Source: a bacterium (GTDB lineage: Bacteria > Cyanobacteriota > Vampirovibrionia > Gastranaerophilales > Gastranaerophilaceae). From it: a DNA stretch of 64,000 nucleotides. Location of the stretch: the NCBI GenBank assembly GCA_017629215.1, contig JAGBXP010000046.1, positions 199 through 64,198 of the forward strand, in the 5' to 3' direction. The position numbers and the translations under genes are program-made. Below are positions 1 through 17,818 of the stretch, piece after piece. The notes under the pieces were generated by a model. The model made no database searches and was not told the origin of the DNA. It was given only the letters and a program-made list of their open reading frames with translations. Within the stretch, counting starts at the first letter, position 1; each line of letters begins with the position of its first letter.

Positions 1-555
1 GAGGCTCGAAGAAGGCAGAATATCGACACAAATCAGCTTGATGACTTAATGCTTGTGGCAGAGGTCAAAACCATTCAGCGAAACGGCATTCGCTTTTTAA
101 ATTGCGATTATTTTGACGAACGACTTTATGGGTTCAAAAGCAAAGTGCTTATAAAATACAATCTTTTTGACCTGACGCATATCAAGGTCTACACCCTAAA
201 AGGCGAGTTTTTATGCACAGCAGAACGTGTAACCGAAACGCATCCGATGGCGAAAATTTTAGGAACTGTCGAAGATATGGAAGATTTCAAACAGAAAATC
301 CAAAAACAAAAACGACTAAAAAGAAAGACAATAAATAGCCTCAAAGCCTATTTACCACAAGAAGAAATTAAATTGTTAGAACATAAAATTGAACGGCCCG
401 TTGTTCAAACCGGGTTCAAAGAGTGTTCAATTGCCGTTCAAGGAATGTTCAAGAATAACGCAGAAAAATATGAGTACCTAATCAAGCACAACCCCGATGA
501 TGCTTGGATTACAGAATTTAAAAAGACAAAGGAGTATCGATTGCTATATGAATAA
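1..555 (+). CDS. DDE transposase, C-terminal part (MuA / TnsB / TniA family); 5' end outside window
   Basis: Frame is open from nt 1. '...VKTIQRNGIRFLNCDYFDERLYGFKSKVLIKYNLFDLTHIKVY...' fits the Mu-transposase C-terminal barrel pattern. An overlapping AAA+ gene follows, as in tniA-tniB / MuA-MuB pairs. Confidence 0.7.
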   Translation, partial: EARRRQNIDTNQLDDLMLVAEVKTIQRNGIRFLNCDYFDERLYGFKSKVLIKYNLFDLTHIKVYTLKGEFLCTAERVTETHPMAKILGTVEDMEDFKQKIQKQKRLKRKTINSLKAYLPQEEIKLLEHKIERPVVQTGFKECSIAVQGMFKNNAEKYEYLIKHNPDDAWITEFKKTKEYRLLYE

Positions 556-1228
556 AACTTTTGTTAAAACGCAAAACGTGCGAAATTTTATCGGACTTAT
601 CGAAAATTTACAAAACAAACCAAAAAATATTCCCAAAATGGCGCTAGTCTATGGCGAGCCTGGGCTAGGCAAATCGCAAACAGCACTTTGGCTTGCGTGT
701 AAATATGATGCGATTTATTTAAGGGCTGCGAATTTGATGTCCGTCAGATGGCTTTTAGAGGAACTGATCAAAGAAATGGACGAAATTCCAAGCTACTTGA
801 GCTCAAATAATTTTAATATCATTATTAAAAAGCTCAAAGCCAAGCCACAGCTGATTATCATCGATGAAATCGACTATCTGCTGAACGATTTTAAGACGAT
901 TGAAACCCTGAGGGATATCCACGACAAAACCGAATGCCCGATAGTGTTTGTTGGGATGAGTTTGGTGCATAAAAAACTCGAACGCTACAAACATTTATAC
1001 GATAGATTCTCTGAAATCGTGAAGTTTGAAACCTTTGGCGTGACGGATTTAAAGCAAATTTTCGATAGTCTTTCGGAAATTCCGTTCACGACCGAAAGTA
1101 TTGAATACATCCACCCAAAATACAATCGTTTTAGACAAATCGTCCAGCTTATTAACCAACTTGAAACTTATGCAAAAGATAATGGAATAACTGAATTCAC
1201 GCTAGAAACGATTCGAGGTTTATTATGA
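548..1228 (+). CDS. TniB / MuB / TnsC-like AAA+ transposition ATPase
   Basis: Walker A 'GEPGLGKSQ' and Walker B 'LIIIDEIDYL'. ATG at 548 overlaps the transposase stop (tATGaaTAA). The tracked ORF 497.. has no SD, so the start is moved to 548. Confidence 0.7.
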   Translation: MNKTFVKTQNVRNFIGLIENLQNKPKNIPKMALVYGEPGLGKSQTALWLACKYDAIYLRAANLMSVRWLLEELIKEMDEIPSYLSSNNFNIIIKKLKAKPQLIIIDEIDYLLNDFKTIETLRDIHDKTECPIVFVGMSLVHKKLERYKHLYDRFSEIVKFETFGVTDLKQIFDSLSEIPFTTESIEYIHPKYNRFRQIVQLINQLETYAKDNGITEFTLETIRGLL

Positions 1229-1779
1229 ACATAGAAAAATTAGCGAAACGATTGAGGGAGTTCACTCTCGACGAAATCGAAATGATTGCTGAAGCTAACG
1301 TTGAAACGGAGCTTGAACGCCTCTTGAACGAGGGTAAAATAGCGTTTGACCAAGGTTGCTACAAATACGTTGAAAAAGCAGAAATAATCGACTATGCGAT
1401 ATTTTCGGCTGAGGCGTTGACTAATGAGCCTTTGAATTTTGAAACGGCAGTAAAATACTTTTTAGAAAAATATGCCAAAACAACTTGCACCAAAAGGACT
1501 TACGAGACTTATGAATCGATTTTTAGGATAAATATTTTGCCATTTTTTAGGGGCAAAATCATTCAAGAAATTACAATTGACGATATAAAAGCTTTTTATG
1601 CAAGTTGCAAAACTAGGAATTTAGGACATAGAAGATTGAAAAACACTTTGACACAGCTCAACCAACTTTTGAAATACTGTAAGTCGCAAGGCTTGATTTC
1701 AAGTTGCTGTAGTTTTCAGGTTAAAAGGCTTAATGAGAAGAATGAATTTAGTATGAATAGAATAATTTTCGAGGACTAA
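1225..1779 (+). CDS. Tyrosine-recombinase N-terminal SAM-like (core-binding) domain protein with no catalytic domain
   Basis: 'FETAVKYFLEKYAKTTCTKRTYETYESIFRINILPFFRGKIIQEITIDDIKAFY...LKNTLTQLNQLLKYCKSQGLIS' matches the integrase core-binding pattern. The ORF stops ~25 aa later, before any R..HxxR..Y catalytic domain. ATGA overlap with the upstream gene. Confidence 0.55.
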   Translation: MNIEKLAKRLREFTLDEIEMIAEANVETELERLLNEGKIAFDQGCYKYVEKAEIIDYAIFSAEALTNEPLNFETAVKYFLEKYAKTTCTKRTYETYESIFRINILPFFRGKIIQEITIDDIKAFYASCKTRNLGHRRLKNTLTQLNQLLKYCKSQGLISSCCSFQVKRLNEKNEFSMNRIIFED

Positions 1780-1781
1780 AA

Positions 1782-2189
1782 ATGAGTAAAATGAAATATT
1801 ATAAACACGCTGAAACCTTGTTTTTGCAAGACAATTTGTCAGTAGATGAAATTTGTAAAAACTTGAATGTCTCTCGACGCACGCTTTTTTATTGGAGAGA
1901 AAAGTACGAGTGGGACAAGAAAAAAGCCGCAAAATTTGCGAAAAAAGAGGATTTTTCAAAAGAGCTGCAAGGGTTTGTGGAAAAACTGATGGCAAAAATC
2001 ACAACCGATATGCAAAACAAAAAACCAGTGAATCAGTCAGAGTTTTATACTCTGACAAACTTGCTGAAATATTTGCCAGACTTGGTGAAATTGGAAATCA
2101 AAGAACAAACCCAAACCCCAAAATCCACCGGCCAACTCTCCGAAGATTTTGTTAAACAAATTGAAAAAGAGTTCTTTGGGATAGAGTAA
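1782..2189 (+). CDS. HTH protein, Mu gp27 / DUF1804-like (small-terminase-like DNA-binding)
   Basis: 'LSVDEICKNLNVSRRTLFYWREKYEWDKKKAA' resembles the HTH plus W-x-x-x-x-WDK signature of Mu-like gp27-type proteins. Starts 2 nt after the upstream stop. Confidence 0.45.
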   Translation: MSKMKYYKHAETLFLQDNLSVDEICKNLNVSRRTLFYWREKYEWDKKKAAKFAKKEDFSKELQGFVEKLMAKITTDMQNKKPVNQSEFYTLTNLLKYLPDLVKLEIKEQTQTPKSTGQLSEDFVKQIEKEFFGIE

Positions 2190-2441: not shown

Positions 2442-2567
2442 CTTTATTACCTCCTTTGGTCTTATATTATCATTTTTAAAGTTTTTACAAAAATTTCAAT
2501 AGTCTACTAAGGCTATAAATATCTAATTCTTATTTTTTGTGATACTCTAAAGAAAAAGGAGTTGCGT

Positions 2568-3497
2568 ATGGTGGTGTTAGGCAAATTAAAAAAAGTTGAT
2601 TTACGTGAAGCTTGGAAACATGAAGCATTGGATTTTACAAATTGGCTTGCAAAAGAAGAAAATTTATCTTTATTGGGTGAAGAAATTGGTCTAGAAATAG
2701 ATTTGATAGAAAAAGAAGCCAATGTAGGTTCGTATCGGGTAGATATTCTTGCGGAAGAATGTGGCACAGACCGAAAAATTGTTATTGAGAATCAGCTTGA
2801 ATATACCAATCATGGACATTTAGGGCAACTTATAACTTATGCATCTGGATATGACGCTGAAATTATTATTTGGATAGTTAAGGAAGTTCGTAGCGAACAC
2901 AAGCAAGCAATTGACTGGTTAAATGAACATACGGATGACAATATACATTTCTTTGCTATAAAAATGGAATTATGGCAAATTGGAGATTCTGAACTAGCAC
3001 CAAAATTTCAAATAATTTGTAAGCCAAATCAATGGGCAAAAATTTTAAAGAAAAATCCTTCAGAAAAAACTAATACTCAACTACAAAGGCTTGAATTTTG
3101 GACTGCGTTAAACGAATATTTGGAAAATAAAAAATCTAATGTCTCTCCACAAAAACCATCGTCAGATCATTGGAATAATGTTTCAATAGGTACGTCCAAA
3201 GCTCATATTTCACTTAGTCTTTTGTCAAAAGATAAAAAAATAGCTTGTGAATTACATATACCTGACAATAAAGATTTTTATCATTATCTTGAGGAAAATA
3301 AAACAGAAATAGAATCTCTTTTTGGTGAAAAACTCATTTGGAAAGAATTAAAAGATAAAAAAGCAAGTAGAATTATTATTGAAAGAGATAACTTTAATTT
3401 GTTTAATAATGAAAATTGGGAAACAGATTTTGATTGGTTTGAAGAAAAAGTTTTAAAATTCAAAAAAGCTATTTGTCCTTTTATAAAGTTAGGTTAG
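2568..3497 (+). CDS. PD-(D/E)xK nuclease-fold protein with DUF4268-like C-terminal domain
   Basis: 'LGKLKKVDLREAWKHEALDFTNWL...YRVDILAEECGTDRKIVIENQLEYTNHGHLGQLITYA...AIDWLN' is the typical N-terminal pattern of this family. SD AAAGGAG lies 5 nt before ATG 2568; the track start 2562 is a TTG. Confidence 0.7.
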   Translation: MVVLGKLKKVDLREAWKHEALDFTNWLAKEENLSLLGEEIGLEIDLIEKEANVGSYRVDILAEECGTDRKIVIENQLEYTNHGHLGQLITYASGYDAEIIIWIVKEVRSEHKQAIDWLNEHTDDNIHFFAIKMELWQIGDSELAPKFQIICKPNQWAKILKKNPSEKTNTQLQRLEFWTALNEYLENKKSNVSPQKPSSDHWNNVSIGTSKAHISLSLLSKDKKIACELHIPDNKDFYHYLEENKTEIESLFGEKLIWKELKDKKASRIIIERDNFNLFNNENWETDFDWFEEKVLKFKKAICPFIKLG

Positions 3498-3727
3498 ATT
3501 TCTTCAATATACCAAACTGAATTTCCAAAATTATTGAAGTTGTATCTTATCTGAAAATAGAAATTAAATTCAATGGAATTATCGTCTTTGTAGTTGTAAA
3601 AAGGCTTATTTAATTCGGTTTTGCGAAAACTTTCAAAGGCAATTTGAATTTCTTTTGCAAACTTTTTTCTAAATTCTGAATATTCCATTTCTAAAGTTTC
3701 TCTAGTTCTTCTATTTTTCAAAATCAT
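3494..3727 (-). CDS. Hypothetical protein (~77 aa)
   Basis: ORF with AAGAGGG SD. Overlaps the upstream 66-aa ORF by 17 nt, giving a coupled pair. Confidence 0.45.
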   Translation of the reverse strand: MILKNRRTRETLEMEYSEFRKKFAKEIQIAFESFRKTELNKPFYNYKDDNSIEFNFYFQIRYNFNNFGNSVWYIEEI

Positions 3728-3911
3728 CTTCAAACCCTCTTATATTATCAAGTTCAATGTTGTATTTTTTGCCTTGCCTATCTACACAGGTGGCAAAATC
3801 TATTTCTACATCCGCAAATTTGTTTTTCCAAGTACAAATCAATAACCCAATTTCCTGCGTTTTAAGATTTAAAATCTTTGTTCCGTATAAGTGATAATCT
3901 TTTTCTACCAT
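3711..3911 (-). CDS. Hypothetical protein (66 aa)
   Basis: AAAGGAG SD 6 nt before the ATG. First gene of a two-gene overlapping pair. Confidence 0.5.
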   Translation of the reverse strand: MVEKDYHLYGTKILNLKTQEIGLLICTWKNKFADVEIDFATCVDRQGKKYNIELDNIRGFEDDFEK

Positions 3912-3998
3912 ATTTTGCTCCTTTCAAGCTATGATATTAATCACTCTTTCAACCAGAAACATCAAGTGCATAAAACAATTTCGTATCATTTCAACACA

Positions 3999-4050: not shown

Positions 4051-4269
4051 TTATTCATCGATACTTTCAGGATAATTAATAAAAAATGCATTAACTTGGT
4101 CTGCATCTCTGCGCAAATTTTTAACAACAGGAGCTAAGTTATAAAGTTCTTCATATTCCTTTTGTGATGAGCAAAAATAATCAATAACTACAGTGGTGTT
4201 GTAGATGTTTTCAGCATATTTTTCTAACTTCTTAAAATCTTTTCTTTTGATAACAAATCTTTCTTCCAT
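4051..4269 (-). CDS. Hypothetical protein (72 aa), downstream partner of the RT
   Basis: AAAGGAGGT SD 6 nt before ATG 4269 ('MEERFVIKRKDFKK...'); the longer tracked start 4296 lacks an SD. Lies 70 nt downstream of the RT stop on the same strand. Confidence 0.55.
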   Translation of the reverse strand: MEERFVIKRKDFKKLEKYAENIYNTTVVIDYFCSSQKEYEELYNLAPVVKNLRRDADQVNAFFINYPESIDE

Positions 4270-4339
4270 ACACAACCTCCTTTTAGGCTGTGACATACAT
4301 CACTTGAAATTTAACGGAAGTCAAGTAAAAAAATCAGCT

Positions 4340-6028
4340 TTAATTTAAACTATTACAAAGACTTGCAAGCTCTTCATCAGCTTTTTTAATATAGTCATTC
4401 AATCGCTTAAAATGATTATTTATTTGTTGCTTTATTACCGAAGTATTAAATACTGTGTCAAAGGTCCTATAAGCGTATGTTATAAAATTACGTTTACCAA
4501 GATGTGTATACTGCTCATATAGATGATGGCGGTATAGTTTTTTTTGTTTTTCTTGTATCTGTATTTTTTGTTTATGCATATTTTTTAGTTTTTGTTTAGC
4601 ATTCAGTTTCATCGCAGACACAGCACGTCTAGATTTTCTTAAATATCTAGCCAAGCTACCTTCTCTAATCCTTACTTTTTCTCCGTCGAAATAAAAACCT
4701 AAATATTGAAGAGGTTGCTGTTTAATTTTAGTAGCATCGGTAAAATCATAACACTGACTTTTTGAATAATTATCCCATTTTTCAATTGGATGAATTTCTA
4801 GATTCTCTCCCCTTTCATAAATATACTCTTTAATCTTATCTATAATTTTTTCTTTAATATCTTCATCATGCGGACAAATAAACATTATGTCATCACAATA
4901 ACGCCTATACAAACCGCCAACATCTTCTGCAAGTCTTTTCATTGCTGAATCAAAAGGTATCATATAAATATTAGATAGGAGCGCTGACATTGCCGAACCT
5001 TGTGGAATTCCATATGGCTTAGGCGCATAAAAACCTTCGTTTCTATGAAATTTTTTATGCTCAGTATCTTTATAAAATTTTTTATACCAATCCTTAAAGC
5101 TTCTAAAGTTTTCTGCATTTTTAAATAAAATTTTAGGAATCTTTTTGTATATTTTTTTGTTACATTTTACACAATTAACTTGCAAGCAGGGTTTCTTTTT
5201 ATCTTTATTTACATAGTAACAAACTTCCTTCATATCTATGTAACAGTACTTGGTTAATGATTTATATATATTTAGATGATCATCTGGTAATTTATCGGCT
5301 TCAAGTACTTTTGCCCATTCTGCATAGAGATTTTTGTGATCTATATAGTCATAAAAGCTGTGAATATCAAAAGCTAGTGCATAACAATTATTCCCACTTT
5401 TTTTTATTTCTTCAAAAACATCTCTTGCCATAGTACAGTTATTTGGACTAATTTCTTTATCATTTATTTTTACAGGCGGAAGTTTTCTATATGCTAAAAT
5501 AACATCACCTAAATCTAATTCTTGTATTCTTTTTTCATATTTTTCGCTCAATAGACTTGCATAGTGAGCATAAATATATCCATCAATATGAGAAGCATAT
5601 CTAATCGGACGTTTTTTGATAATACCTTTCTTCTTTAAATTATCTAACGCTTCTATACACTTATCTTTTTCTATTCCGGATAATTCAAGCTGTTTTCTCT
5701 TATAATATTTAATTTTATTGATTAAATTTGATCGTCTTTCTTTTATATCAAAAGCTATAAAGGGATAAAATGCATGCTTTGCAATTTTTTCCGGAGAATT
5801 TAAAAACGAATGTAGCGAATCAATTTGATGCTTAATTTTCTTTTGCGATGCAGGTGTTATTACATATTTTGTTTTAGTACTTGATTTATCTTTTGTGATA
5901 TATCTACCGAAAGAGAAAGGTCTATCAAAGTGAGCAAAACTTTTTAGATTGAAGGTTGGGATTTTTTCAGAAACCTGCTGGGTTAAATTACTTTTCAGTT
6001 TGTTGTAATTATTTTGCTTTTTAGACAT
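4340..6028 (-). CDS. Reverse transcriptase, UG/Abi (defence-associated) class-like, 562 aa
   Basis: RT motifs 'RPIRYASHIDGYIYAHYASLL', 'LAFDIHSFYDYIDH', 'GIPQGSAMSALLSNIYM', 'YCDD' (nt 4889-4900) and 'LQYLGFYFDG'. No maturase/En domain and no retron-like features. Confidence 0.85.
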   Translation of the reverse strand: MSKKQNNYNKLKSNLTQQVSEKIPTFNLKSFAHFDRPFSFGRYITKDKSSTKTKYVITPASQKKIKHQIDSLHSFLNSPEKIAKHAFYPFIAFDIKERRSNLINKIKYYKRKQLELSGIEKDKCIEALDNLKKKGIIKKRPIRYASHIDGYIYAHYASLLSEKYEKRIQELDLGDVILAYRKLPPVKINDKEISPNNCTMARDVFEEIKKSGNNCYALAFDIHSFYDYIDHKNLYAEWAKVLEADKLPDDHLNIYKSLTKYCYIDMKEVCYYVNKDKKKPCLQVNCVKCNKKIYKKIPKILFKNAENFRSFKDWYKKFYKDTEHKKFHRNEGFYAPKPYGIPQGSAMSALLSNIYMIPFDSAMKRLAEDVGGLYRRYCDDIMFICPHDEDIKEKIIDKIKEYIYERGENLEIHPIEKWDNYSKSQCYDFTDATKIKQQPLQYLGFYFDGEKVRIREGSLARYLRKSRRAVSAMKLNAKQKLKNMHKQKIQIQEKQKKLYRHHLYEQYTHLGKRNFITYAYRTFDTVFNTSVIKQQINNHFKRLNDYIKKADEELASLCNSLN

Positions 6029-6436
6029 ATATTTCCTTTTTTAGCACGGAAGACACTCGGATTCGTTCGTCCATAAGAGTGTCTTCCAAAACTTAGCCTT
6101 CTTTATCAGAAGAACATTTTCTTTGACAATTCAAGTCGTCTTTCAACCTTCTTGTCTTGTTAAAAGTTTCATATCCCTGTCAACAACGAGTTTATACTCT
6201 ATGTTATAATGGTAAATATAACCTTAGAAAGGAGATACTAATGATATTCTTAACCATTCTGATTGAAGGTTTAAGGTTCTACCTTAGTAAACACCTTCTT
6301 GTGAAGATAATAACGCGAAGCGTTATTATACTTTACAAAGTTTATTCACCTCCCACCTGCCAAATTAGAATTTCTAACCAACAAATGGCATTATAATGTT
6401 ATCATAAAAATAATATTTTTATAAAAAACTTAATTA
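6029..6436 (-). ncRNA. Candidate structured non-coding leader / RT-associated ncRNA
   Basis: 408-nt gap between hsdS stop and RT start. Perfect 11-bp hairpin 6048-6058/6077-6087 ends 20 nt before the RT SD. Perfect 10-bp hairpin 6307-6316/6320-6329. Three CCTTCTT(G/T)T motifs at 6097, 6147 and 6294. Confidence 0.35.
6241..6396 (+). CDS. Candidate 51-aa hydrophobic peptide, antisense to the RT leader
   Basis: Extended -10 TGtTATAAT (6202-6210), SD AAAGGAG (6228-6234) and ATG 6241. 'MIFLTILIEGLRFYLSKHLLVKIITRSVIILYKVY...'. The frame is open 6127-6396. Confidence 0.25.
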   Translation: MIFLTILIEGLRFYLSKHLLVKIITRSVIILYKVYSPPTCQIRISNQQMAL

Positions 6437-8311
6437 TTATTTAATATTTGAATCCGGAATTAAATTTTTTCTTCTCATAAAAAGAATTCTATCCTGCAAA
6501 TCACTGTCATAAAATCTTGCTTTTTGTTTACTCCACGCTTTAAAATCTGCAATTAAATCGGTATCAGTACAGCTTAAGTTATTACTCAATCTATTTAACC
6601 AAACTGCATACAATGTTGCCACAGATTCACAAAAATCTGAATTTTTGCCTCTAAATAGTTCTAACAGATTATTTATTCCTGTTACTTCTGCACTAAATAC
6701 TTTGTTAAATATTTCAGAAATTTCGTTACTTTTTTCAAGTGGAGTATATTTTGTAACTTCAATATTGTTTTTTTGTTCTTTTCGAATGCTAAACCATTTT
6801 TTATTTTTCAAAATATCTTCTACTTCATATCTTGCTTGTGCATCATGAGGTCCTGCAGCTTCTTGTTTATATTTACCACCAAGATTTATTTTTAAATGTG
6901 TTTCGCAAAAATATATAATTTTTTCTAGCTTTATTGCACCAAAATATTGTTCTTCATACAACTGTGAAATGATTTTTGCACTTAAAATTGCCCTTTTTTC
7001 TTTTAAATCAATAATATTGCTACTCTTATTTAGATATACAGTTAAAAACATTTCCTCAATAGATTTTAATAAACTTAAAGAGTTTTCTTTAACTGAATCA
7101 TTTTTCTTTTTTAAATTTTCTATAAAATCTAATAATTTATTAATTTTATTAACTATACGAAGTTGCTCGGTAAGAGGGGGTAGTGGAACCATAAGTTTAC
7201 TTAAGGATTGTCCATTTACATTTGGCTGTCCTGTTCCCATTGAATATTCTTTTAGTTGTTTCCAATATAAAGGTGATTCCATAAATATTTTTATATATTT
7301 TTCATTGATATTATTGAGAGGAATTGCTCTTATTAAGTATGATGCAAACACAGCGGTTTCTTTTAAATTATCAACAACATATGTTTTACCCATCGTACCC
7401 CCTGTCCGTGCAATTAAAATGTCTCGATTTTGTAACATATATTTTTTTATATTATCATCAGATATTGAACAAAACGGAACGTTATTCCATAATACTTTGT
7501 CATCTTGTATATCTGTAATTCTTAATAATTTCACATTCCCGCTATTTTCTGCTGATGCAGTATACCCATAATGAATTTGTGTGGTTATTGAGCCTAATTT
7601 TGTCCACTCCCAACCTTTTGGCAACTCATACGGAAATTCATCTTCTGTAATCGGTGGCATTGGTCTTTCGTTTTTGAGTTTGCCATCTTTTACTAGTTGT
7701 TCTTTTTCTGCTTTTATTCTTTTTAGGAGTTCTGAGGCAGGTTTATCCGATTGTTTTTGAGGAATTAATATACCCCTAACGGCATCTAACAAAAGAGATT
7801 CTTTTAAACTCTGAATTAACAATTCTTGTTCAAGACATTTTTTATTAATCAAATTATTTTTATATTTTGCCTTTTTAATTTTTTCTACAATTTGCTCTTG
7901 AATATTTATGTTTGGAATTTCTATAATAATAGTTTTTATACTATTAATTGTAAGAGAAACATTTGCTGCACCTTTCATTAGCGGAACGATTTTTGAATCT
8001 TTATAAAAAGATAAATAATAATATAGGAATTCTGCGTTTAACTGCTTTTCATCGTTTGGAATAACAGCTGCAAGTATATTACCAAGTGCAAATTTACCTT
8101 CTTGATAGTGTATTCTTTTTAAACTTGCATGTCCATGTCCAGTCGAAGAGACTAGCGGAATACATACTGCTTTTGTATCAAATTGGTACTCATTGCTGGA
8201 TAGCCTTTCTTCTGCTGTTACAACTAATGGATAATCTCCGGCAATAGCTTTTTTTATTCCGGTAGAACCTTTTATTATTGTGCATACTTCACCAAGTGTA
8301 AATTGTTCCAT
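6437..8311 (-). CDS. hsdS: Type I R-M specificity subunit HsdS with ~200-aa C-terminal extension
   Basis: Two target-recognition domains with conserved spacers ('...LPPLTEQLRIVNKINKLLDFIENL'). 624 aa, longer than a typical ~400-450 aa HsdS. The tail (nt ~6440-7010) carries 'AIKLEKIIYFCETHL...AAGPHD'. Confidence 0.85.
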   Translation of the reverse strand: MEQFTLGEVCTIIKGSTGIKKAIAGDYPLVVTAEERLSSNEYQFDTKAVCIPLVSSTGHGHASLKRIHYQEGKFALGNILAAVIPNDEKQLNAEFLYYYLSFYKDSKIVPLMKGAANVSLTINSIKTIIIEIPNINIQEQIVEKIKKAKYKNNLINKKCLEQELLIQSLKESLLLDAVRGILIPQKQSDKPASELLKRIKAEKEQLVKDGKLKNERPMPPITEDEFPYELPKGWEWTKLGSITTQIHYGYTASAENSGNVKLLRITDIQDDKVLWNNVPFCSISDDNIKKYMLQNRDILIARTGGTMGKTYVVDNLKETAVFASYLIRAIPLNNINEKYIKIFMESPLYWKQLKEYSMGTGQPNVNGQSLSKLMVPLPPLTEQLRIVNKINKLLDFIENLKKKNDSVKENSLSLLKSIEEMFLTVYLNKSSNIIDLKEKRAILSAKIISQLYEEQYFGAIKLEKIIYFCETHLKINLGGKYKQEAAGPHDAQARYEVEDILKNKKWFSIRKEQKNNIEVTKYTPLEKSNEISEIFNKVFSAEVTGINNLLELFRGKNSDFCESVATLYAVWLNRLSNNLSCTDTDLIADFKAWSKQKARFYDSDLQDRILFMRRKNLIPDSNIK

Positions 8312-8312
8312 T

Positions 8313-9740
8313 TTAAACCCTTAATTCTGCTTCTATTGAATCTAAAAGAGTATTAATTTCTTCATAATTATTCCTAAGTTTTTTTATTAATTCTTGTGGA
8401 GATTCTAATATTTTTTCTTCTGAATTATTTGGATTTTTTATATCAAGATTGTAATTATTATTGACAATTTCTTCTACTGATACTTTCCAAGCTACTTCAT
8501 TTTCTACTTTATTTCCCCACCACTTACGTATAGGATCAAATTCTTCATTCCGTATAGGATTTGTTTTTGAATAACTTTTTAGTCCTTCGGGTAATTTATG
8601 TTCATAGAACCAAATATGTTGTGTTGGTTCTCCTTTTTTAAAGAATAATAAATTTGTACCGACTGTAGCATATGGTTTAAAAACGGAATTAGGTAATCTG
8701 ACGATAACTTCAAGATTACAAGTTTTAAGTAATTCCTCTTTTATTCTTGTTTTTACACCTTCTCCAAAAAGTGAACCGTCAGGCAAAACGACACCTGCTC
8801 TGCCTTGATGTTTTAGCATTTTCATTATATAGACCAAGAATAAATCTGCTGTTTCTCGAGTTCTAAAACTTGCAGGAAAATTATTTTCAATTCCTTCTTC
8901 CTCGATACCGCCAAACGGTGGGTTTGTAACGATACAATCAACCCTATCAGCTGGCGAGATATTATTTATCGGTTTAGATAAAGTGTTATCTCGTCTGATA
9001 TTTATTGGTGTATCAATTCCGTGCAATATCATATTAGTTGTGCAAAGTTGGTGCGGAAGTGGCTTCTTTTCAATCCCACAAATGTTTGTGTTTAAGGTTT
9101 CAGCTTCCGCAGATGTTGAAATTTGTTTTTTCAAATGTTCGATTGTGCAAGCCAAAAATCCACCTGTACCACACGCAGGGTCAAGAACTTTTTCGTTTAT
9201 TTTAGGATTAACCATATCAACGATAAATTGAGTTACTGCACGAGGTGTGTAATATTCCCCTGCATTACCTGCTGATTGCAAGCTTTGTAATAGCTGCTCA
9301 TAAATATCATTAAATAGGTGTCTATCTTCGCTTGAATTAAAGTCGATTTCGTTAATTTTATTAATAACTTGGCGAAGCAAAGTACCTGATTTCATGTAAT
9401 TATAAGTATCTTGAAAAATATTTTTAATAATAAAAGCACGTTTATCAGCATCATTTTCAAGGTTTTGCAAATATGGAAATAAATCGTTGTTGATAAAATC
9501 AATCAACTCATCCCCTGTCATACCTTCATCATCTTTTGCCCAAGTTTGCCAGCGATATTTTTCAGCAATTGGTGATTTGTAGTTATCATCAATAATTTCT
9601 GCTTCAACTTCTTTATCTGCAAAAATCTTTAAAAATAACATCCAGACGATTTGAGAAAGTCTTTGTGCATCACCATCAACCCCTGTATCTTTTCTCATTA
9701 TGTCCTGTATCGCTTTTATAACACTTGATATATTTGGCAT
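8313..9740 (-). CDS. hsdM: Type I R-M N6-adenine DNA methyltransferase HsdM
   Basis: 'LDPACGTGGFL' (SAM motif I) and 'TNPPFGG' (motif IV). HsdM N-terminal domain. Stop lies 1 nt from the hsdS start. Confidence 0.93.
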   Translation of the reverse strand: MPNISSVIKAIQDIMRKDTGVDGDAQRLSQIVWMLFLKIFADKEVEAEIIDDNYKSPIAEKYRWQTWAKDDEGMTGDELIDFINNDLFPYLQNLENDADKRAFIIKNIFQDTYNYMKSGTLLRQVINKINEIDFNSSEDRHLFNDIYEQLLQSLQSAGNAGEYYTPRAVTQFIVDMVNPKINEKVLDPACGTGGFLACTIEHLKKQISTSAEAETLNTNICGIEKKPLPHQLCTTNMILHGIDTPINIRRDNTLSKPINNISPADRVDCIVTNPPFGGIEEEGIENNFPASFRTRETADLFLVYIMKMLKHQGRAGVVLPDGSLFGEGVKTRIKEELLKTCNLEVIVRLPNSVFKPYATVGTNLLFFKKGEPTQHIWFYEHKLPEGLKSYSKTNPIRNEEFDPIRKWWGNKVENEVAWKVSVEEIVNNNYNLDIKNPNNSEEKILESPQELIKKLRNNYEEINTLLDSIEAELRV

Positions 9741-9753
9741 TTATATTCTCCAA

Positions 9754-10359
9754 TTATTTTAATAGTTTTTTATTTAATTCTTTAAAAGTTTTTATCAGTT
9801 TAGTTAATGCTTCTCTATTTGTTATAGCTATAGACTTTAACTCTTTAACATTTTCAGATAAAACAGGGTCTAAACCACCATACATTATATTAGCTTGCGT
9901 ATTTATTTCTGCAACAAACTCTTTTTTAACATTGTTATAATCATAAATTGATATTCTGTATACCTGCATTTTGGCACAAATATCATTCAAAATTTGTTCA
10001 TGTTCCTCATGATCAATCATCCAATTTTTCAAAAGCAGAACACAACTACCAAATTCTTCAGCCATTTCATTATCAATCAGCTTAATTTCATTATTTAAAA
10101 ATGCTCTATCTGTTAAATCTTTTTCTGGTATATTTTTAGATTGTTTTGAATAAACTATTGATTCTAATTCATAAAGTTGAAGTTCTTGAATGTATTTGTT
10201 TAGGCCTTCTAATAAATTAATTAATTTTTGTCTTTTTTGTTGGTTTTTCCAAGAGTCTAGAGCCTTTCCTGCAAAAAACGCCATAAATCCTGTAGCAATC
10301 ATCATAACAAAAGTTGATAATGCAGTTAGTCCGTTAAAAAACAATGTCCAGCCTTCCAT
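9754..10359 (-). CDS. Membrane-anchored hypothetical protein (201 aa) embedded in the Type I R-M operon
   Basis: N-terminal TM helix 'WTLFFNGLTALSTFVMMIATGFMAFFAG' followed by a helical soluble part. Start overlaps the hsdR stop (TAATG). Stop lies 13 nt before hsdM. Confidence 0.65.
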   Translation of the reverse strand: MEGWTLFFNGLTALSTFVMMIATGFMAFFAGKALDSWKNQQKRQKLINLLEGLNKYIQELQLYELESIVYSKQSKNIPEKDLTDRAFLNNEIKLIDNEMAEEFGSCVLLLKNWMIDHEEHEQILNDICAKMQVYRISIYDYNNVKKEFVAEINTQANIMYGGLDPVLSENVKELKSIAITNREALTKLIKTFKELNKKLLK

Positions 10360-12749
10360 TATGCCACCTCGTCATTAAACAATTCTTTTTCAAGTTCTCG
10401 GATTGCTTCTTCGTATCTATCCTTACCACCAAATTCTTTGATAATTTCTACTGGTGTACCAAATTTATCAAACGGTTGAAAACTTAAAATACTACGATTT
10501 TCGATTTCCATAATACCTTCATCAGCAAATTTATCAATCAAGGCATTTAAAATAGCTCTGGCTTTTTCAGAATACTTACCAAAATAATTTCTTTTCTTAA
10601 CCTTTTCAGCTCTTTCTTTTCTTGAAAGCGGTGGCATATCAAAAGTTACGTGACAAATCAAATCAAAAATACTTAAATCCTTGCCTGTTTTCTGTTTGAC
10701 TTCTTCTCTCAACTCTTCAAACAAAATACCTTGTTCTTCCAGTTCTTCAATAATTACAGATTTTTTGTCAGCTTCTGACCATTTTTTGATAAAATCATTC
10801 AATGTCGCAAACTGCTCTTTTAAATTCTTTTTCGTATAATCAACAAGGCTTTCGGTAATTAATTTTCCATCTTTACCATAATACTGAACACGTTCACCAA
10901 CTTGGACAACTTCAACTCCATTTACATAAAATTTTCTTGTCGGAGTTTCAATATCGGTTAAATCAATATCTGGTGGGATATCTACAACTGTTTCTTCTTT
11001 TGAAATTTCATCAATTATATCGATAATTTCTTCTTTTGTTTGTTCATCAGCTGGCATTTCTTCAGTTTCTTTTACTTCTTTTATTTGAACAGGTTCTCCA
11101 TCAAATTCCTTGTCTTCAAATAAACGAGTCACGCCTCTAAAATCCATAATCGTGAAATAATACTTGCCAAAATCTGGTCTCAAACGAGTTCCACGACCAA
11201 TGATTTGTTTAAATTCTGTCATTGAATTAATATTGCTATCAAGAACAATTAGCTTACATGTTTTAGCATCAACGCCAGTTGTCATTAGTTTTGATGTTGT
11301 TGCAATTACAGGATAAGTTGATTCAGGATCTATAAAATTATCTAATTCCATTTTGCCTTCATTATCATCACCAGTAATTTTCATTACATATTTTGAGTTT
11401 TGAGCAACTAAATCAGCATTTTCATTTACCAATGCTTGGCGCATTCTATTTGCATGATCAATATCTACGCAGAAAACAATAGTCTTATCCAATCTATTAT
11501 TTTTCTTTAAATATTCTGTAATTCTCTTTGCAACAAGTTCAGTTCTCTCATCTACAACTATTTTCTTATCAAAATCTTTTGTATTGAATTCTTCATCAGG
11601 GACTTCGTTTCCATATTTATCAATTGTACCTTGAGGTAATTTTAAGCCATCTAAATCAATATTGATTAGCGGTCTAATAACTTTATATGGAGCAAGAAAA
11701 CCATCTTCAATACCTTGTTTTAGTGAATAAGTATAAATTGGTTCACCAAAGTATTCAATATTGGAAACATCTTTTGTCTCTTTTGGTGTTGCAGTTAAAC
11801 CCAAATGAGAAGCTGAACTAAAATAATCAAGGACTTCACGCCAAGCAGAATCTTCTTTAGCACTACCTCTATGACACTCATCAATTACAACTAAATCGAA
11901 AAAATCTGGTGAAAATTGTTTATATGCGTCTTTATCTTCATCATTACCAGTAAGACCTTGATATAAAGCAAGATAGATTTCGTATGATTTATCAATTTGT
12001 CTTTTGGTAATTTTAGTCATTTTATCACCAAAAGGTGCAAAATCTTGAGCTTTTGTTTGATCGATTAAAATATTTCTATCAGCCAAAAATAAAATTCTTT
12101 TCTTTTTACGTGCTTTCCATAATCTCCAAATGATTTGAAAAGCTGTATAAGTTTTACCAGTACCTGTTGCCATTACCAACAAGGTTCTATCTTGACCTTT
12201 TGCAATAGCTTCAACCGCTCTATTTATTGCAATTCTTTGATAATATCTTGGCTCTTTTCCACTTGGATCAATATGATAATTTTGTGTATAAACTGATTCA
12301 ACTTCAACATCTTCGATTTGTTTGTATTTTTTGTATTTATTCCACAACTCTTGTGGACTTGGAAATTTATTTACAGGTAGTTCAATTTCTTTTTTACCAA
12401 GCTCTACAGTTCTATCATGTAATAAAAAAGCATCGCCATTTGAAGAAAAAACAAACGGAATATCCAACGTTTCGGCATATTCAATACCTTGTTGAATACC
12501 TGCTCCAACCGAATGTTTATTGTCTTTAGCCTCAATAATAGCGATAGGAATATTGTTCTTGTAATACAAAATGTAATCAGCGCGCTTTTGTTTTCCTCTT
12601 GAAACAAGCTTGCCTCTTACAATAACTTTACCAGCAGTAAAAGAAACCTCTTCTCTTATTTGTGCATTTCTATCCCAACCAGCTTCTATAATAGCAGGAG
12701 TTATAAATTTTGTACAAATATCTCTTTCTGATAAAGATTTTTTATCCAT
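10359..12749 (-). CDS. hsdR: Type I restriction enzyme R subunit HsdR
   Basis: N-terminal PD-(D/E)xK ('ADYILYY...IAIIEAKD'), SF2 helicase motifs 'MATGTGKTYTAF' and 'VIDECHRGS'. ATG 12749 has a GAGG SD; the tracked start 12773 is a TTG. Confidence 0.93.
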   Translation of the reverse strand: MDKKSLSERDICTKFITPAIIEAGWDRNAQIREEVSFTAGKVIVRGKLVSRGKQKRADYILYYKNNIPIAIIEAKDNKHSVGAGIQQGIEYAETLDIPFVFSSNGDAFLLHDRTVELGKKEIELPVNKFPSPQELWNKYKKYKQIEDVEVESVYTQNYHIDPSGKEPRYYQRIAINRAVEAIAKGQDRTLLVMATGTGKTYTAFQIIWRLWKARKKKRILFLADRNILIDQTKAQDFAPFGDKMTKITKRQIDKSYEIYLALYQGLTGNDEDKDAYKQFSPDFFDLVVIDECHRGSAKEDSAWREVLDYFSSASHLGLTATPKETKDVSNIEYFGEPIYTYSLKQGIEDGFLAPYKVIRPLINIDLDGLKLPQGTIDKYGNEVPDEEFNTKDFDKKIVVDERTELVAKRITEYLKKNNRLDKTIVFCVDIDHANRMRQALVNENADLVAQNSKYVMKITGDDNEGKMELDNFIDPESTYPVIATTSKLMTTGVDAKTCKLIVLDSNINSMTEFKQIIGRGTRLRPDFGKYYFTIMDFRGVTRLFEDKEFDGEPVQIKEVKETEEMPADEQTKEEIIDIIDEISKEETVVDIPPDIDLTDIETPTRKFYVNGVEVVQVGERVQYYGKDGKLITESLVDYTKKNLKEQFATLNDFIKKWSEADKKSVIIEELEEQGILFEELREEVKQKTGKDLSIFDLICHVTFDMPPLSRKERAEKVKKRNYFGKYSEKARAILNALIDKFADEGIMEIENRSILSFQPFDKFGTPVEIIKEFGGKDRYEEAIRELEKELFNDEVA

Positions 12750-12943
12750 GAAGACCTCATACTTCTTGAACAATTATAGCATAAATAATATCTATAGGCT
12801 TTATTGTTTTATTGGGCTGAGACTTTTATCGTATATTCAATATAAATATATTCATATTGTACAAATTCAATTTAACTCAATGCTATAATCATTAATAATA
12901 ATTAATTTTGATAAAATAAAGTTTGGATATTAAAAATTAGAAT

Positions 12944-13535: not shown

Positions 13536-14075
13536 TCACAAATAAAAATCCCTATATACTGCATCTATATCTTCCTGCTCGATACCAATGTAGCGGAGGG
13601 TGATTTGGGGAGAGGAATGATTAAAAATCTTTTGCAGCAGCACGACATCGTCATATTTTTGGTAGCAATGGTATCCAAAAGTTTTCCTCAATGTATGTGT
13701 GCCAATTCGTCTTGTTATCCCAACCGCTCTCGCAGCTTTATTTAAAATCTTATATGCTCTGCTCCTTTCCATTCGTCTTCCCTTCTGTGTATAAAACAAT
13801 GGTTGTTCCTCCGGCATTCCCTTGGTAAATTCTTCAATCTCCTGCTTTAACTTATCATTAATCGGAAATACTTTCCGTTTGCCGGTTTTTAGTTCTCTGA
13901 TTTCAATATACTCTTTGTTCCTAACATCCCCGACATTAAGTGCAAGTATATCAGAAATCCTCAGTCCGCTATTTATCCCAAAGCTGAAGAGCAAGGCGTT
14001 CCTTGGCTTTTTCGCCAAGAACTCTTTCATTTTTCTAATATCTTCAAGGCTTTTTATTGGGTCAACAGCATTCAT
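13536..14075 (-). CDS. Minimal tyrosine recombinase (catalytic domain only, 179 aa)
   Basis: 'GLRISDILAL' (Arg), 'HTLRKTFGYH' (HxxR) and 'SPQITLRYI' (Tyr). No N-terminal core-binding domain. Confidence 0.8.
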   Translation of the reverse strand: MNAVDPIKSLEDIRKMKEFLAKKPRNALLFSFGINSGLRISDILALNVGDVRNKEYIEIRELKTGKRKVFPINDKLKQEIEEFTKGMPEEQPLFYTQKGRRMERSRAYKILNKAARAVGITRRIGTHTLRKTFGYHCYQKYDDVVLLQKIFNHSSPQITLRYIGIEQEDIDAVYRDFYL

Positions 14076-15675: not shown

Positions 15676-16347
15676 TTATGAAAACATTTTAATATTATCT
15701 GAACTCCATTGTATTAGCATTTTGTATAAATTTTCAAGTTCAATTGTAGTTTTTTCGTTAATATTATTTCTATTAATGCAAGTATTCAAGATATCTCTGT
15801 CTATTCCAATTAACAATTCTAAAAGTTCCATTTTGGTTGGAATATATTTTTTAGTTTCTATAAAATATTTTGTCTGCAAAATAAAAAATGTACTTTTATA
15901 TAAATTTTTCAAATCTTCAGTACGATTATTAGAATGAATAAAGCTATGGACAGCAGTATGGTACAAGTTTTCAGAACCAATTTTTACTGCTTGTTTCGCA
16001 TCTTCTATAGTTGGAGGTTGAATTAAATCTTGCAGGTTGCCAATAAGAGATTTTGTATCGTAGAAAAATTGGAACAAGTCCGATTTAGACCAATTTTGCA
16101 GTTCCTCTCTACCTGAAATAAAACCACAAGATTTATCTTTATCTGGCATACTATTAATTATCGAATGATATCTTTTTAAGTCTTCAAAACTTAAATTATC
16201 TAAAATTACCACAAGATCAATATCGCTACTTTGGGTTGCTTCACCTCGATTATAACTACCTTGAAGCCCAACAAATAATAATCTTTGTTCAAATTCGTTT
16301 TGTAATTTTTTGATTATAATATCAAGCCAAACATTAATATCAAACAC
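15676..16347 (-). CDS. Nucleotidyltransferase-domain protein (223 aa)
   Basis: 'GLQGSYNRGEATQSSDIDLVVIL' is the pol-beta-type NTase G[SG]..D.D motif. GTG start with AAGAGGTG SD. Stop lies 8 nt before bcp. Confidence 0.7.
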   Translation of the reverse strand: MFDINVWLDIIIKKLQNEFEQRLLFVGLQGSYNRGEATQSSDIDLVVILDNLSFEDLKRYHSIINSMPDKDKSCGFISGREELQNWSKSDLFQFFYDTKSLIGNLQDLIQPPTIEDAKQAVKIGSENLYHTAVHSFIHSNNRTEDLKNLYKSTFFILQTKYFIETKKYIPTKMELLELLIGIDRDILNTCINRNNINEKTTIELENLYKMLIQWSSDNIKMFS

Positions 16348-16567: not shown

Positions 16568-17818
16568 CTATCGTGCTTTTTTAATTTTTAGAATTGCATC
16601 AGCAAAACGTTCATGCATTATTTCTTCGTGAGAGCTATCTATTGATTTTATATGTTTTTTTAGTGCATATAAAAATTCTGAAAAATATGGAATCTTTTTG
16701 TATAAGCTTTTATTTTTCTCAAAGAAATTATAAATTTCACTAAATTCAATCAATTTATAATATTCTCCGCACTCATAGTTTTCCAATTTTATATGATTGT
16801 AATTAGGTGCAAAAATAAAGTAGAAACATTCTTTTTCAGAATAATTTTTTTCGACATATTCACGATATTTTTTAAGTTGTGATTGTATTAAATCACTACC
16901 AATATCGTGCCTTTCGCAGATTCCATTTATATTTGATTTAATTTTATTTTCAATAACAATAGCTTTATCATTGCTTAATAACAATAAATCGATATTTTCT
17001 TTCTCTCTTAAAGTACAAAAATCAAAGCTAAAGCTAGCAATACTTAAAACCTCTTTTGCAAACTTACTAAAAGCTAATGGATTTGCATCAAAAATATATT
17101 TAAATAAGTTAGAAAAGACTAATTCGTCATTTTGCTTTTGAATAATATCAATAAAATTATTAGCTCCTTTGTCTTTATTTTTTCTTTTGTTCAAAATTTC
17201 TTGAACTTTAGGCGTTGTATTTTTATCTTCCCAAAGAGTATCGTTGTTAATAATTTTCTCTAAAACATCAAAGCCTTTAGTCCCTTCTTCAATATACATT
17301 TTAGGACTTTGAGAGGGAAAATGCTCAACATCTTCCATAAAATAACAATCGGTATTTGATTTATCTGTAGTAATATAGATTGGCTTAGAAGCTTTTCTTA
17401 TGTTATTAGCTTTAAAAGTAATATAAATACATTCGTCATTGCCTTTGTTATGCTCGCAAATTTTGTATTGTTTTAGTCCACCATAAGTAATCTTATTTTT
17501 ATCTAAATAATCTAATTGAAATTGATGTTGGATTTGTCTTTCATCTTTAGTAAAAGCTTTTTGGATATATGCAACTTGCTCTAAATCAGTAGCTTTCGCG
17601 ATTATTTCAATAATCTTAGAACTACATCTTTTAACAAGTAAAATAGATTTAATTTTATCATTATGTTTTTTACTCATTGAGCCATAAGGTAAAACATAGA
17701 TATAATTACTGCCATTATCAGCTTTAAATAAATTTATAATCTCATGTCCTATATTGGCATTCTCATCTTCAAGATAAGTACCTGTATACATAATGTTCAA
17801 TAAAATTTCTTTTGTCAT
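16568..17818 (-). CDS. Two-domain protein with C-terminal PD-(D/E)xK nuclease-like core (416 aa)
   Basis: 'ENIDLLLLSNDKAIVIENKIKS...QLKKY' parallels the D..(I/V)VIEN(Q/K) core of 2568..3497. The N-terminal ~250 aa are unassigned. Confidence 0.6.
   Translation of the reverse strand: MTKEILLNIMYTGTYLEDENANIGHEIINLFKADNGSNYIYVLPYGSMSKKHNDKIKSILLVKRCSSKIIEIIAKATDLEQVAYIQKAFTKDERQIQHQFQLDYLDKNKITYGGLKQYKICEHNKGNDECIYITFKANNIRKASKPIYITTDKSNTDCYFMEDVEHFPSQSPKMYIEEGTKGFDVLEKIINNDTLWEDKNTTPKVQEILNKRKNKDKGANNFIDIIQKQNDELVFSNLFKYIFDANPLAFSKFAKEVLSIASFSFDFCTLREKENIDLLLLSNDKAIVIENKIKSNINGICERHDIGSDLIQSQLKKYREYVEKNYSEKECFYFIFAPNYNHIKLENYECGEYYKLIEFSEIYNFFEKNKSLYKKIPYFSEFLYALKKHIKSIDSSHEEIMHERFADAILKIKKAR

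Follow-up and report, generated by a model that had tools for sequence, protein, structure and literature searches.

A probable DRT2 (UG2) antiphage locus of a divergent long-form clade, with a predicted neo template RNA, in a Gastranaerophilaceae genome

What kind of system is encoded where a reverse transcriptase (RT) gene follows a structured leader, precedes a small open reading frame (ORF) and adjoins a Type I restriction-modification (R-M) operon? The question is raised by a 64,000-nt stretch of a Gastranaerophilaceae genome (GenBank assembly GCA_017629215.1, contig JAGBXP010000046.1, positions 199 to 64,198 of the forward strand), hereafter the window, of which positions 4051-6436 had been presented in a preliminary description as an orphan RT of the defence type, matching no named type, with the leader and the small ORF as further parts. 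We consider it probable that 4340-6390 on the minus strand is a two-part antiphage system of the defence-associated reverse transcriptase type 2 (DRT2, also UG2), comprising a noncoding RNA (ncRNA) and then its RT, which makes a repetitive neo gene. The locus is of the known DRT2 kind and represents a divergent, long-form clade, not a new kind of system; to our knowledge, the ncRNA and neo gene of this clade have not previously been worked out in the literature.

DRT2 is the standard example of a gene that comes into being only through reverse transcription, and the system from Klebsiella pneumoniae (KpnDRT2; Tang et al. 2024, PMC11100668; Wilkinson et al. 2024, PMC12039810; PDB 9c0i) serves as our point of comparison. 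A single RT stands behind an upstream ncRNA of ~280 nt, whose central template of 111-129 nt, always divisible by three, is flanked on both sides by ACA trinucleotides. The RT copies this template repeatedly, and the double-stranded concatemer gains a promoter in which TTGACA, situated close to one template end, and TATAAT, close to the other, are now 17 bp apart; a ribosome-binding site (RBS) and an ATG follow the -10 element, and one stop-free frame opposite the ncRNA encodes the product, Neo (PMC11100668, PMC12039810). Published neo genes have been mapped confidently only among relatives of the Klebsiella system, divergent clades being difficult. The sequences of the present locus and some 20 relatives, mostly from uncultured gut Gastranaerophilales and Alphaproteobacteria, suggest that the permuted promoter, a unit that is a multiple of three (3n) and the endless ORF survive at ~35% RT identity, with parts that differ from the canonical ones: a 50-codon repeat, a longer alignment repeat, another RNA scaffold and a bigger RT. 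What is gained is a concrete and testable prediction of the junction in the complementary DNA (cDNA), a second set of sequences with which to ask what features of RNA and RT set the jump site and the unit length, and a hint that such cassettes travel with Type I R-M operons.

The minus strand of the window carries, in order of transcription, a 408-nt leader (6029-6436), the RT ORF and the small ORF, at a base composition of ~30% GC throughout, with no compositional island. The two components of the proposed system are:

4340-6028, minus strand: DRT2-family reverse transcriptase of the long-form clade, 562 amino acids (aa), from the ORF, profiles, PDB matches and fold
6044-6390, minus strand: predicted DRT2-type ncRNA of ~345 nt, both ends approximate, from fold z score, conservation and consensus structure

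The preliminary description had read the layout correctly. The 562-aa ORF and all the RT motifs that it quoted are present on the minus strand, namely RPIRYASHIDGYIYAHY (residues 140-156), FDIHSFYDYIDH (220-231), GIPQGSAMSALLSNIYM (340-356) and YCDD (377-380, encoded at 4889-4900); the hairpin-rich upstream region occupies 6029-6436; a 72-aa ORF with a Shine-Dalgarno sequence begins 70 nt past the RT stop; and the adjoining R-M operon ends at the hsdS stop codon (6437-6439), with hsdM and an EcoAI-family hsdR farther upstream. Its placement of the locus in a defence island was equally sound.

Profile searches place the RT in the Drt2 family, by PADLOC models PDLC03757 (E=7.5e-116) and PDLC02173 (E=8.6e-96) and by NCBIfam Drt2 (NF041746), the top-scoring family at 353.5 bits (E=1.8e-105). 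The next-best PADLOC family is UG17 (3e-22); in the comparison with DRT9, DRT10/UG17 and DRT3, Drt2 outscores UG17 and Drt3a in PADLOC by 90-100 orders of magnitude. Pfam recognises RVT_1 alone, with no fused effector domain. The only PDB sequence matches are KpnDRT2 chains (E~4e-63), and the AlphaFold2 (AF2) model of the RT (pLDDT 88.8, pTM 0.85) retrieves with Foldseek, as its top match, chain 9c0i_A of the KpnDRT2 RT-ncRNA complex (E=5.5e-30, TM(target) 0.83), the second-best fold lying at E=1.7e-8 and TM 0.51. The RT is thus a DRT2/UG2 enzyme in a longer, divergent clade, which bears out the earlier view of it as a defence-type RT distinct from those of group II introns, retrons and diversity-generating retroelements, and overturns the statement that it belongs to no named type. 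Its relatives in the protein database are 510-610 aa long and 36-93% identical, nearly all of them unnamed and metagenomic, and named Drt2 proteins (425-460 aa) share 32-37% identity with it. Genome matches place the long clade in uncultured gut Gastranaerophilales, other Melainabacteria-type cyanobacteria and gut Alphaproteobacteria.

The RT aligns to Drt2 from end to end and differs by insertions only: its extra length lies in an N-terminal extension, a helical (hairpin) insertion at residues ~100-135 and ~35-40 aa between motifs A and B. Since these motifs are ~118 aa apart here and ~80 aa apart in canonical Drt2, only the additional ~35-40 aa, which include a cluster of cysteines, are specific to the clade; the ~110-aa insertion described previously is for the most part native to the family. 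The cluster (C270/C281/C286/C289, CX10CX4CX2C; residues 270-289, ~5162-5221) is conserved in most of the long clade, is modelled by AF2 with a confidence of 71-83, and by its sequence pattern suggests a small zinc-binding element. The short helical tail rich in lysine and glutamine, once taken as distinctive, is shared with the family, residues 338-550 aligning on residues 228-426 of the KpnDRT2 chain; this C-terminal part is predicted to be mostly helical.

The leader upstream of the RT is strongly structured, its minimum free energy of -108.1 kcal/mol comparing with -76.6 +/- 4.7 in 100 dinucleotide shuffles (z = -6.7). The RNA is conserved upstream of the RT in all close relatives. The suspicion that the leader matters was right. 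We derived a consensus structure from ten leaders whose RTs are 53-93% identical, and set the ends of the ncRNA at the start of the 5' hairpin and just past the long terminal hairpin:

6351-6390, minus strand: 5' hairpin, analogue of the '5' handle'; consensus helix 1, 16 pairs, 97.8% paired, 3 compensatory
6048-6087, minus strand: long terminal hairpin of the 3' scaffold, analogue of the 'tower'; consensus helices 7-9

The consensus consists of the 5' hairpin, three hairpins within the template defined below and the long terminal hairpin, with 91.9% of cells paired and 20 pairs showing compensatory changes, as against 9.3 +/- 2.0 in shuffles (0/500) and 4-11 in slid controls. The position of the 5' hairpin, which stops 5 nt short of the upstream copy of the repeat AUAAACU, matches that of the 5' handle of KpnDRT2. 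The main stem of the terminal hairpin is 100% paired, and its inner stem shows covariation (GC:5, AU:4). A candidate pseudoknot would join the loop of this hairpin, AACGA (6063-6067), to UCGUU (6185-6189), immediately 3' of the template; neither side of it varies within the sub-clade. Conservation within the leader is lowest in the template, as it is in the alignment of close KpnDRT2 relatives (Wilkinson et al., PMC12039810). A notion that the leader as a whole is more conserved than the RT gene proved wrong, identity to the window being 0.54-0.85 for leaders and 0.64-0.91 for coding sequences.

The leader matches no Rfam family, and an nhmmer profile built from it recovers the close sub-clade plus a weak match in L008 (related loci are cited by such labels), with no sequence link to canonical ncRNAs. 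Resemblances to the Rfam family RT-12 (RF03016) are ones of layout: the same position relative to the RT gene, a small hairpin followed by a terminal long hairpin, a common GA(A/U)GG element (window ACAAGAAGG-UUGAAAGAC, Klebsiella GAGAAGG-UUGGAUAAAGACC), and a UUGCGGC/GCCGCAA complementarity in the RT-12 consensus that the proposed AACGA/UCGUU pairing would parallel. Because neither RT-12 nor the leader profile connects the two, we describe the RNA as analogous in layout to the canonical DRT2 ncRNA and claim no kinship; it cannot be filed as an RT-12 member. The model itself performs as expected on positive controls, matching Klebsiella locus L052 at 86.7 bits (3816-3950) and Ferrimonas locus L025 at 52.7 bits (3847-3959). 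Rfam types RF03016 merely as a small RNA gene; here it was matched just upstream of two canonical DRT2 RT genes, where it spans the 3' scaffold of the leaders, and in L052 the match falls 3' of the predicted template.

Does this RNA contain a neo template? As the ncRNA lies on the minus strand, a neo gene must read on the plus strand, where one frame is stop-free over 6127-6393 and the other two hold 12 stops each in the 408-nt leader. The following elements were located there:

6196-6345, minus strand: predicted template, one 150-nt repeat unit, from promoter geometry, repeat spacing, circular frame and 3n indels
6332-6337, plus strand: -35 element TTTACA of the predicted neo promoter, 5/6 to consensus, genomically downstream of its -10
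6202-6210, plus strand: extended -10 element TGTTATAAT of the predicted neo promoter, kept in all close relatives
6229-6243, plus strand: RBS AAGGAG (6229-6234) and predicted neo start ATG (6241-6243), in the stop-free frame
6339-6345, minus strand: 5' copy of the junction repeat AUAAACU (AGTTTAT on the plus strand), predicted end of each cDNA round
6189-6195, minus strand: 3' copy of AUAAACU, putative re-alignment site for the 3' end of the nascent cDNA

Concatenation of the unit brings the permuted elements together as TTTACA-17 nt-TATAAT, 11/12 to consensus, and the 17-nt spacer requires a repeat unit of 150 nt. The same length is marked independently by the two AGTTTAT copies, which are exactly 150 nt apart and lie within the would-be promoter spacer. 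Read on the plus strand and circularised, the unit gives 50 sense codons (TLCYNGKYNLRKEIL-MIFLTILIEGLRFYLSKHLLVKIITRSVIILYKVY), the other frames containing 8 and 7 stops. Among dinucleotide shuffles of the leader, 1/2000 equals the combination of promoter, 3n unit, open circular frame and junction homology of at least 5 nt, and 38/2000 have an equally long open stretch. Finally, indels within the template sum in close relatives to multiples of three (6; 5+1; 3), and those 3' of the template do not. By analogy, the AUAAACU homology would be the functional counterpart of ACA in the form of a different motif, its 3' copy being the likely equivalent of KpnDRT2 ACA-2 and of the telomerase alignment region.

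Other candidates for the unit boundary fared worse. The sole pair of canonical flanks that was tried as ACA-1 and ACA-2 (6300-6302 and 6178-6180) has a spacing of 122 nt, which three does not divide. A second direct repeat, at 6147-6155 and 6294-6302 (plus strand CCTTCTTGT; RNA sense ACAAGAAGG), is kept at both positions in 10/10 aligned leaders, and the copy nearer the RT is similar to GAGAAGG in the Klebsiella ncRNA and to the RT-12 consensus. As a junction, ACAAGAAGG(U) was rejected: its copies are 147 nt apart in the window but 153, 154, 145 and 148 nt apart in relatives, the promoter is not rebuilt, and indels from the template end to the second copy are not 3n. A search of IMG/VR returned no match to the predicted AUAAACU junction, which is uninformative.

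The same scan applied to Klebsiella DRT2 (L052) as a control reproduced the published layout, with TTGACA-17-TATAAT, a unit of 117 nt and TGT as the homology at the junction. Together, the RT family, RNA conservation and covariation, permuted promoter, 3n unit, direct repeat and circular frame are seen in the window and about 20 relatives. Top units among the latter were 150 nt in L161, L001-L003, L005 and L007; 153 in L004, L082 and L011; 147 in L162, L016 and L086; 141 in L164 and L165; 171 in L010; and 159 in L009 and L012. In four loci the adopted unit is not the clear top: in L013 the 153-nt unit scores one point under a 93-nt top pair, and in L015, L017 (159) and L019 (156) the promoter match is just 10/12. 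When the frame filter was removed, the top units were 150 (five loci), 153, 147, 141, 141, 171, 159, 153, 159, 147 and 147; all loci over the score threshold, which L015 and L019 did not reach, gave 3n units except two that are considered below. Downstream of the -10, most of the 20 related loci analysed and the Klebsiella control have an RBS and an ATG in frame, the stretch between -10 and ATG in the related loci holding a motif of the AGGAGG, AAGGAG or GGAGG type; L013 has no clear RBS in this interval. The 13-23 codons from the start of the unit to the ATG, which an ordinary gene would have as 5' untranslated region (UTR), contain no stop in any locus. The TG extension of the -10 is lacking in many relatives, and the junction repeat reaches 12 nt in L162. 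Predicted Neo repeats are 43-60% hydrophobic (Klebsiella control, 49%), and a four-repeat Neo was modelled by AF2 as helical hairpin repeats in 1/5 models (pLDDT 80.5), which lends weak support to a repeat protein. A sister group of RT homologues with long C-terminal extensions (~780-915 aa; P0068-P0071; L023 and L024, also L018 and L022) occurs in Ruminobacter/Succinatimonas-type genomes; permuted-promoter scans revealed no neo-type permuted promoter or unit there, and this group may work differently.

By homology with KpnDRT2, cDNA synthesis, template jumping at AUAAACU, triggering by phage, toxicity of Neo and defence itself would be expected of the window locus, and the following sequence of events can be proposed. 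The RT would bind the ncRNA through the 5' hairpin and the 3' scaffold and copy the 150-nt template, from 6345 to 6196 in RNA sense. The 3' end of the cDNA, ...AGTTTAT, would re-anneal to the second AUAAACU at the start of the template, so allowing the RT to begin another round; the predicted cDNA junction is ...CTTTACAAAGTTTAT|ACTCTATGTTATAAT..., recurring with 150-bp periodicity. Once double-stranded, the head-to-tail cDNA would carry TTTACA-17 nt-TGnTATAAT across every junction, a promoter that is not present in the genome, together with the RBS, the ATG and an endless 50-codon frame specifying a hydrophobic repeat protein, Neo, which, by analogy, would arrest the infected cell.

In its essentials this scheme resembles KpnDRT2. 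Both have a single RT gene with no effector domain and a common fold (TM 0.83), behind a co-oriented ncRNA with a 5' hairpin, a three-hairpin central template and a 3' scaffold ending in a long hairpin; in both, permuted -35 and -10 elements are rebuilt with a 17-nt spacer on concatenation and are followed by an RBS and ATG, and a 3n unit has a circular stop-free frame opposite the RNA, predicted to encode a hydrophobic and probably helical repeat protein. The differences are of dimension and detail: an RT of 562 aa rather than 425 aa, with its N-terminal extension, helical-hairpin and cysteine-rich insertions; a unit of 150 nt (141-171 across the clade) instead of 111-129 nt; the junction homology AUAAACU (7-12 nt in the clade) in place of conserved ACA trinucleotides; a TG extension of the -10; an ncRNA that escapes Rfam RT-12; and a cassette whose usual place, in this clade, is the 3' end of a Type I R-M operon. 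The analogy with telomerase RNA drawn by Wilkinson et al. (PMC12039810), in which a short direct repeat bounds the template so that the 3' end of the product can re-align, would fit a repeat of 7-12 nt even better than ACA; in contrast to telomerase, where 4-8 nt are copied, the template here has 150 nt and the product would become a gene, and there is no evolutionary relationship. DRT9, DRT10/UG17 and DRT3 likewise pair an RT with an adjoining structured ncRNA and defend through DNA synthesis, as would the present system; their products differ in being homopolymer, short tandem-repeat or poly(GT/AC) DNA with no ORF.

Several observations weigh against reading the locus as a neo-producing DRT2 system. 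The RT falls below the NCBIfam Drt2 equivalog cut-off (353.5 against 390 bits), as would fit a divergent sub-clade left unnamed by NCBI, and its identity to named Drt2 proteins is just 32-37%. In the leader, RT-12 has no match up to E=10, and its gathering score is attained in 0/15 long-clade loci scanned; no conserved ACA/ACA pair flanks the template; and no promoter belonging to the ncRNA was detected. The extended -10 could let a single genomic copy be transcribed somewhat. The two exceptions in the frame-free scan, L014 (154) and L008 (247), are not multiples of three, several distant relatives have a junction homology of just 3-5 nt, possibly by chance, and 4/5 structure models of Neo are poor. 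Neo annotation is also acknowledged to be hard in divergent DRT2 clades, where alternative mechanisms are possible (Tang et al., PMC11100668).

Some of these points would be accommodated if the locus were a DRT2-related RT-ncRNA pair whose product is not a neo gene but a non-coding repeat, a single-copy cDNA or a cDNA with an untranslated function. The position of the ncRNA outside RT-12, the missing ACA motifs and the three clade-specific RT insertions, cysteine cluster included, all speak for this, as do the alternatives that Tang et al. (PMC11100668) suspected in divergent clades and the non-coding products that other class 2 DRTs (DRT9, DRT10, DRT3) are reported to make. We regard it as distinctly unlikely, given that it leaves unexplained why units are 3n in nearly all lineages, why the would-be 5' UTR is free of stops, why the RBS and in-frame ATG are conserved, and why indels in the template come only in multiples of three. 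The antisense frame might instead be an ordinary small gene of the plus strand, of 51 aa from the ATG at 6241 or 79 aa from a TTG at 6157, for example a hydrophobic type I toxin with the RT leader as its antisense RNA. A TGn-extended -10, an RBS and an ATG do precede a 51-codon hydrophobic ORF with a genomic stop at 6394, and extended -10 promoters can function without a -35. Such a gene gives no reason to expect the 13-23 codons upstream of the ATG to be kept open in all lineages, or a -35 to lie downstream at the exact distance that yields a 17-nt spacer on concatenation, with a direct repeat marking the same 150-nt unit; moreover, the Klebsiella control shares the layout, its mechanism being proven, and many relatives do without the TG extension. 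This explanation is accordingly very improbable. We give equally little credence to the view that the locus is an inactive relic whose features were inherited but no longer function in this genome: the -35 is 5/6 rather than 6/6, the ncRNA promoter was not found and activity is deduced from sequence, but the RT ORF is intact with all catalytic motifs, and the maintenance of the ORF, of the RNA pairs and of the circular frame in relatives at 64-93% identity indicates purifying selection.

The neo-producing DRT2 reading must also be set against the three-part model of the preliminary description, in which the small ORF encodes a partner or effector of the RT.

4051-4269, minus strand: 72-aa ORF with a Shine-Dalgarno sequence, a real gene and conserved flank of a variable defence hotspot

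The ORF is co-oriented with the RT and starts from MEERF, with a strong Shine-Dalgarno sequence, AAGGAGG, 6-7 nt ahead of its ATG and a distance of exactly 70 nt from the RT stop; an 81-aa reading from an upstream ATG is possible, and an independent gene caller chose the 72-aa form in the locus that is 93% identical. It is kept beside the RT in L161 and L003-L007, with 64-68% identity in the syntenic L003-L007. Against the three-part model, L001 and L002, whose RTs (81-82% identical) are the nearest in the genome collection, lack it beside the RT and have there a YhcG nuclease and AbiH, respectively; it is likewise absent beside the RT in L165, which has an acetyltransferase-like gene there, and in L162, which has no called gene on that side. 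It has 208 homologue clusters, as against about a dozen for RTs at least 64% identical, and the homologues sampled (L166, L167, L169, L170-L173) adjoin unrelated cargo and no RT: SIR2 and Piwi (a short prokaryotic Argonaute), a PLD-helicase with an AAA_23 partner, and an MmeI-type methyltransferase with a 356-aa protein by McrBC. Characterised DRT2, for its part, works without an additional protein (PMC11100668, PMC12039810). Hence the ORF marks the conserved border of a hotspot with different cargo in different genomes, here a Type I R-M operon and DRT2, and a role in the RT system is scarcely credible. The RT does fall in a characterised single-gene family that lacks the ORF, as the preliminary description had allowed it might; the leader, which that family was also supposed to lack, is integral to it as the ncRNA template.

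The neighbouring R-M genes are these:

6437-12773, minus strand: Type I R-M operon, upstream of the leader and co-oriented with it, a recurrent neighbour; hsdR (EcoAI family) 10359-12773, hsdM 8313-9740, long-form hsdS 6437-8311

Either hsdS or hsdR lies directly upstream of long-clade RTs, in the same orientation, in ~17 of ~24 loci inspected, which span several phyla (L001-L011, L014, L016, L161, L164 and L165 show the linkage). In the window the ncRNA starts ~45 nt past the hsdS stop, and no sigma-70-like promoter was found between them. The closeness of the ncRNA to hsdS with no recognisable promoter, together with this recurrence, indicates that the R-M operon may drive the ncRNA-RT transcript, and so is a possible transcriptional partner of the cassette by read-through. 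One may go further and suppose that the long-form DRT2 clade is a distinct subtype tied physically and transcriptionally to Type I R-M operons, a proposal we hold to be doubtful. If true, first-line restriction and last-line neo dormancy would be coupled in one unit, the template jump of the subtype would also depend on a telomerase-like alignment repeat of 7-12 nt rather than on ACA, and the four-cysteine insertion in the RT fingers would stand where the canonical enzyme has part of its RNA-docking surface.

Within the R-M operon, a C-terminal extension of HsdS that had seemed special proved ordinary, matching the long-form PADLOC Specificity_I model. A 201-aa ORF between hsdR and hsdM (9754-10359, minus strand) has a hydrophobic N-terminus and no family match, and is kept in L161 and partly in L003. 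In the alphaproteobacterial relative L016 (1589-3610), the HsdS upstream of the RT has a C-terminal IrrE/M78 peptidase domain.

On the far side of the 72-aa ORF, a 79-aa ORF (3494-3733, minus strand) matches the phage family phrog_34337 (E=1.8e-18); it and a 66-aa ORF (3711-3911) are syntenic in L004 and L005, the latter also occurring in L003. Context analysis rejects all three small ORFs as RT partners, and the phrog_34337 match is their only family match. One side of the island (49-2189, plus strand) encodes a Mu-transposase C-terminal domain, a TniB-like AAA ATPase, an integrase SAM-like domain and a helix-turn-helix protein, and the other (13536-14075, minus strand) a short tyrosine recombinase of 179 aa; a mobile element may carry the defence island or border on it. 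PADLOC candidates in the surroundings comprise PDC-S11 (DUF4268, E=2e-122; 2562-3497, plus strand), PDC-S23 (E=3e-124; 18144-19145, plus strand), a PDC-S09-like nucleotidyltransferase (15676-16347, minus strand) and a weak PDC-S26-like match (16568-17818, minus strand).

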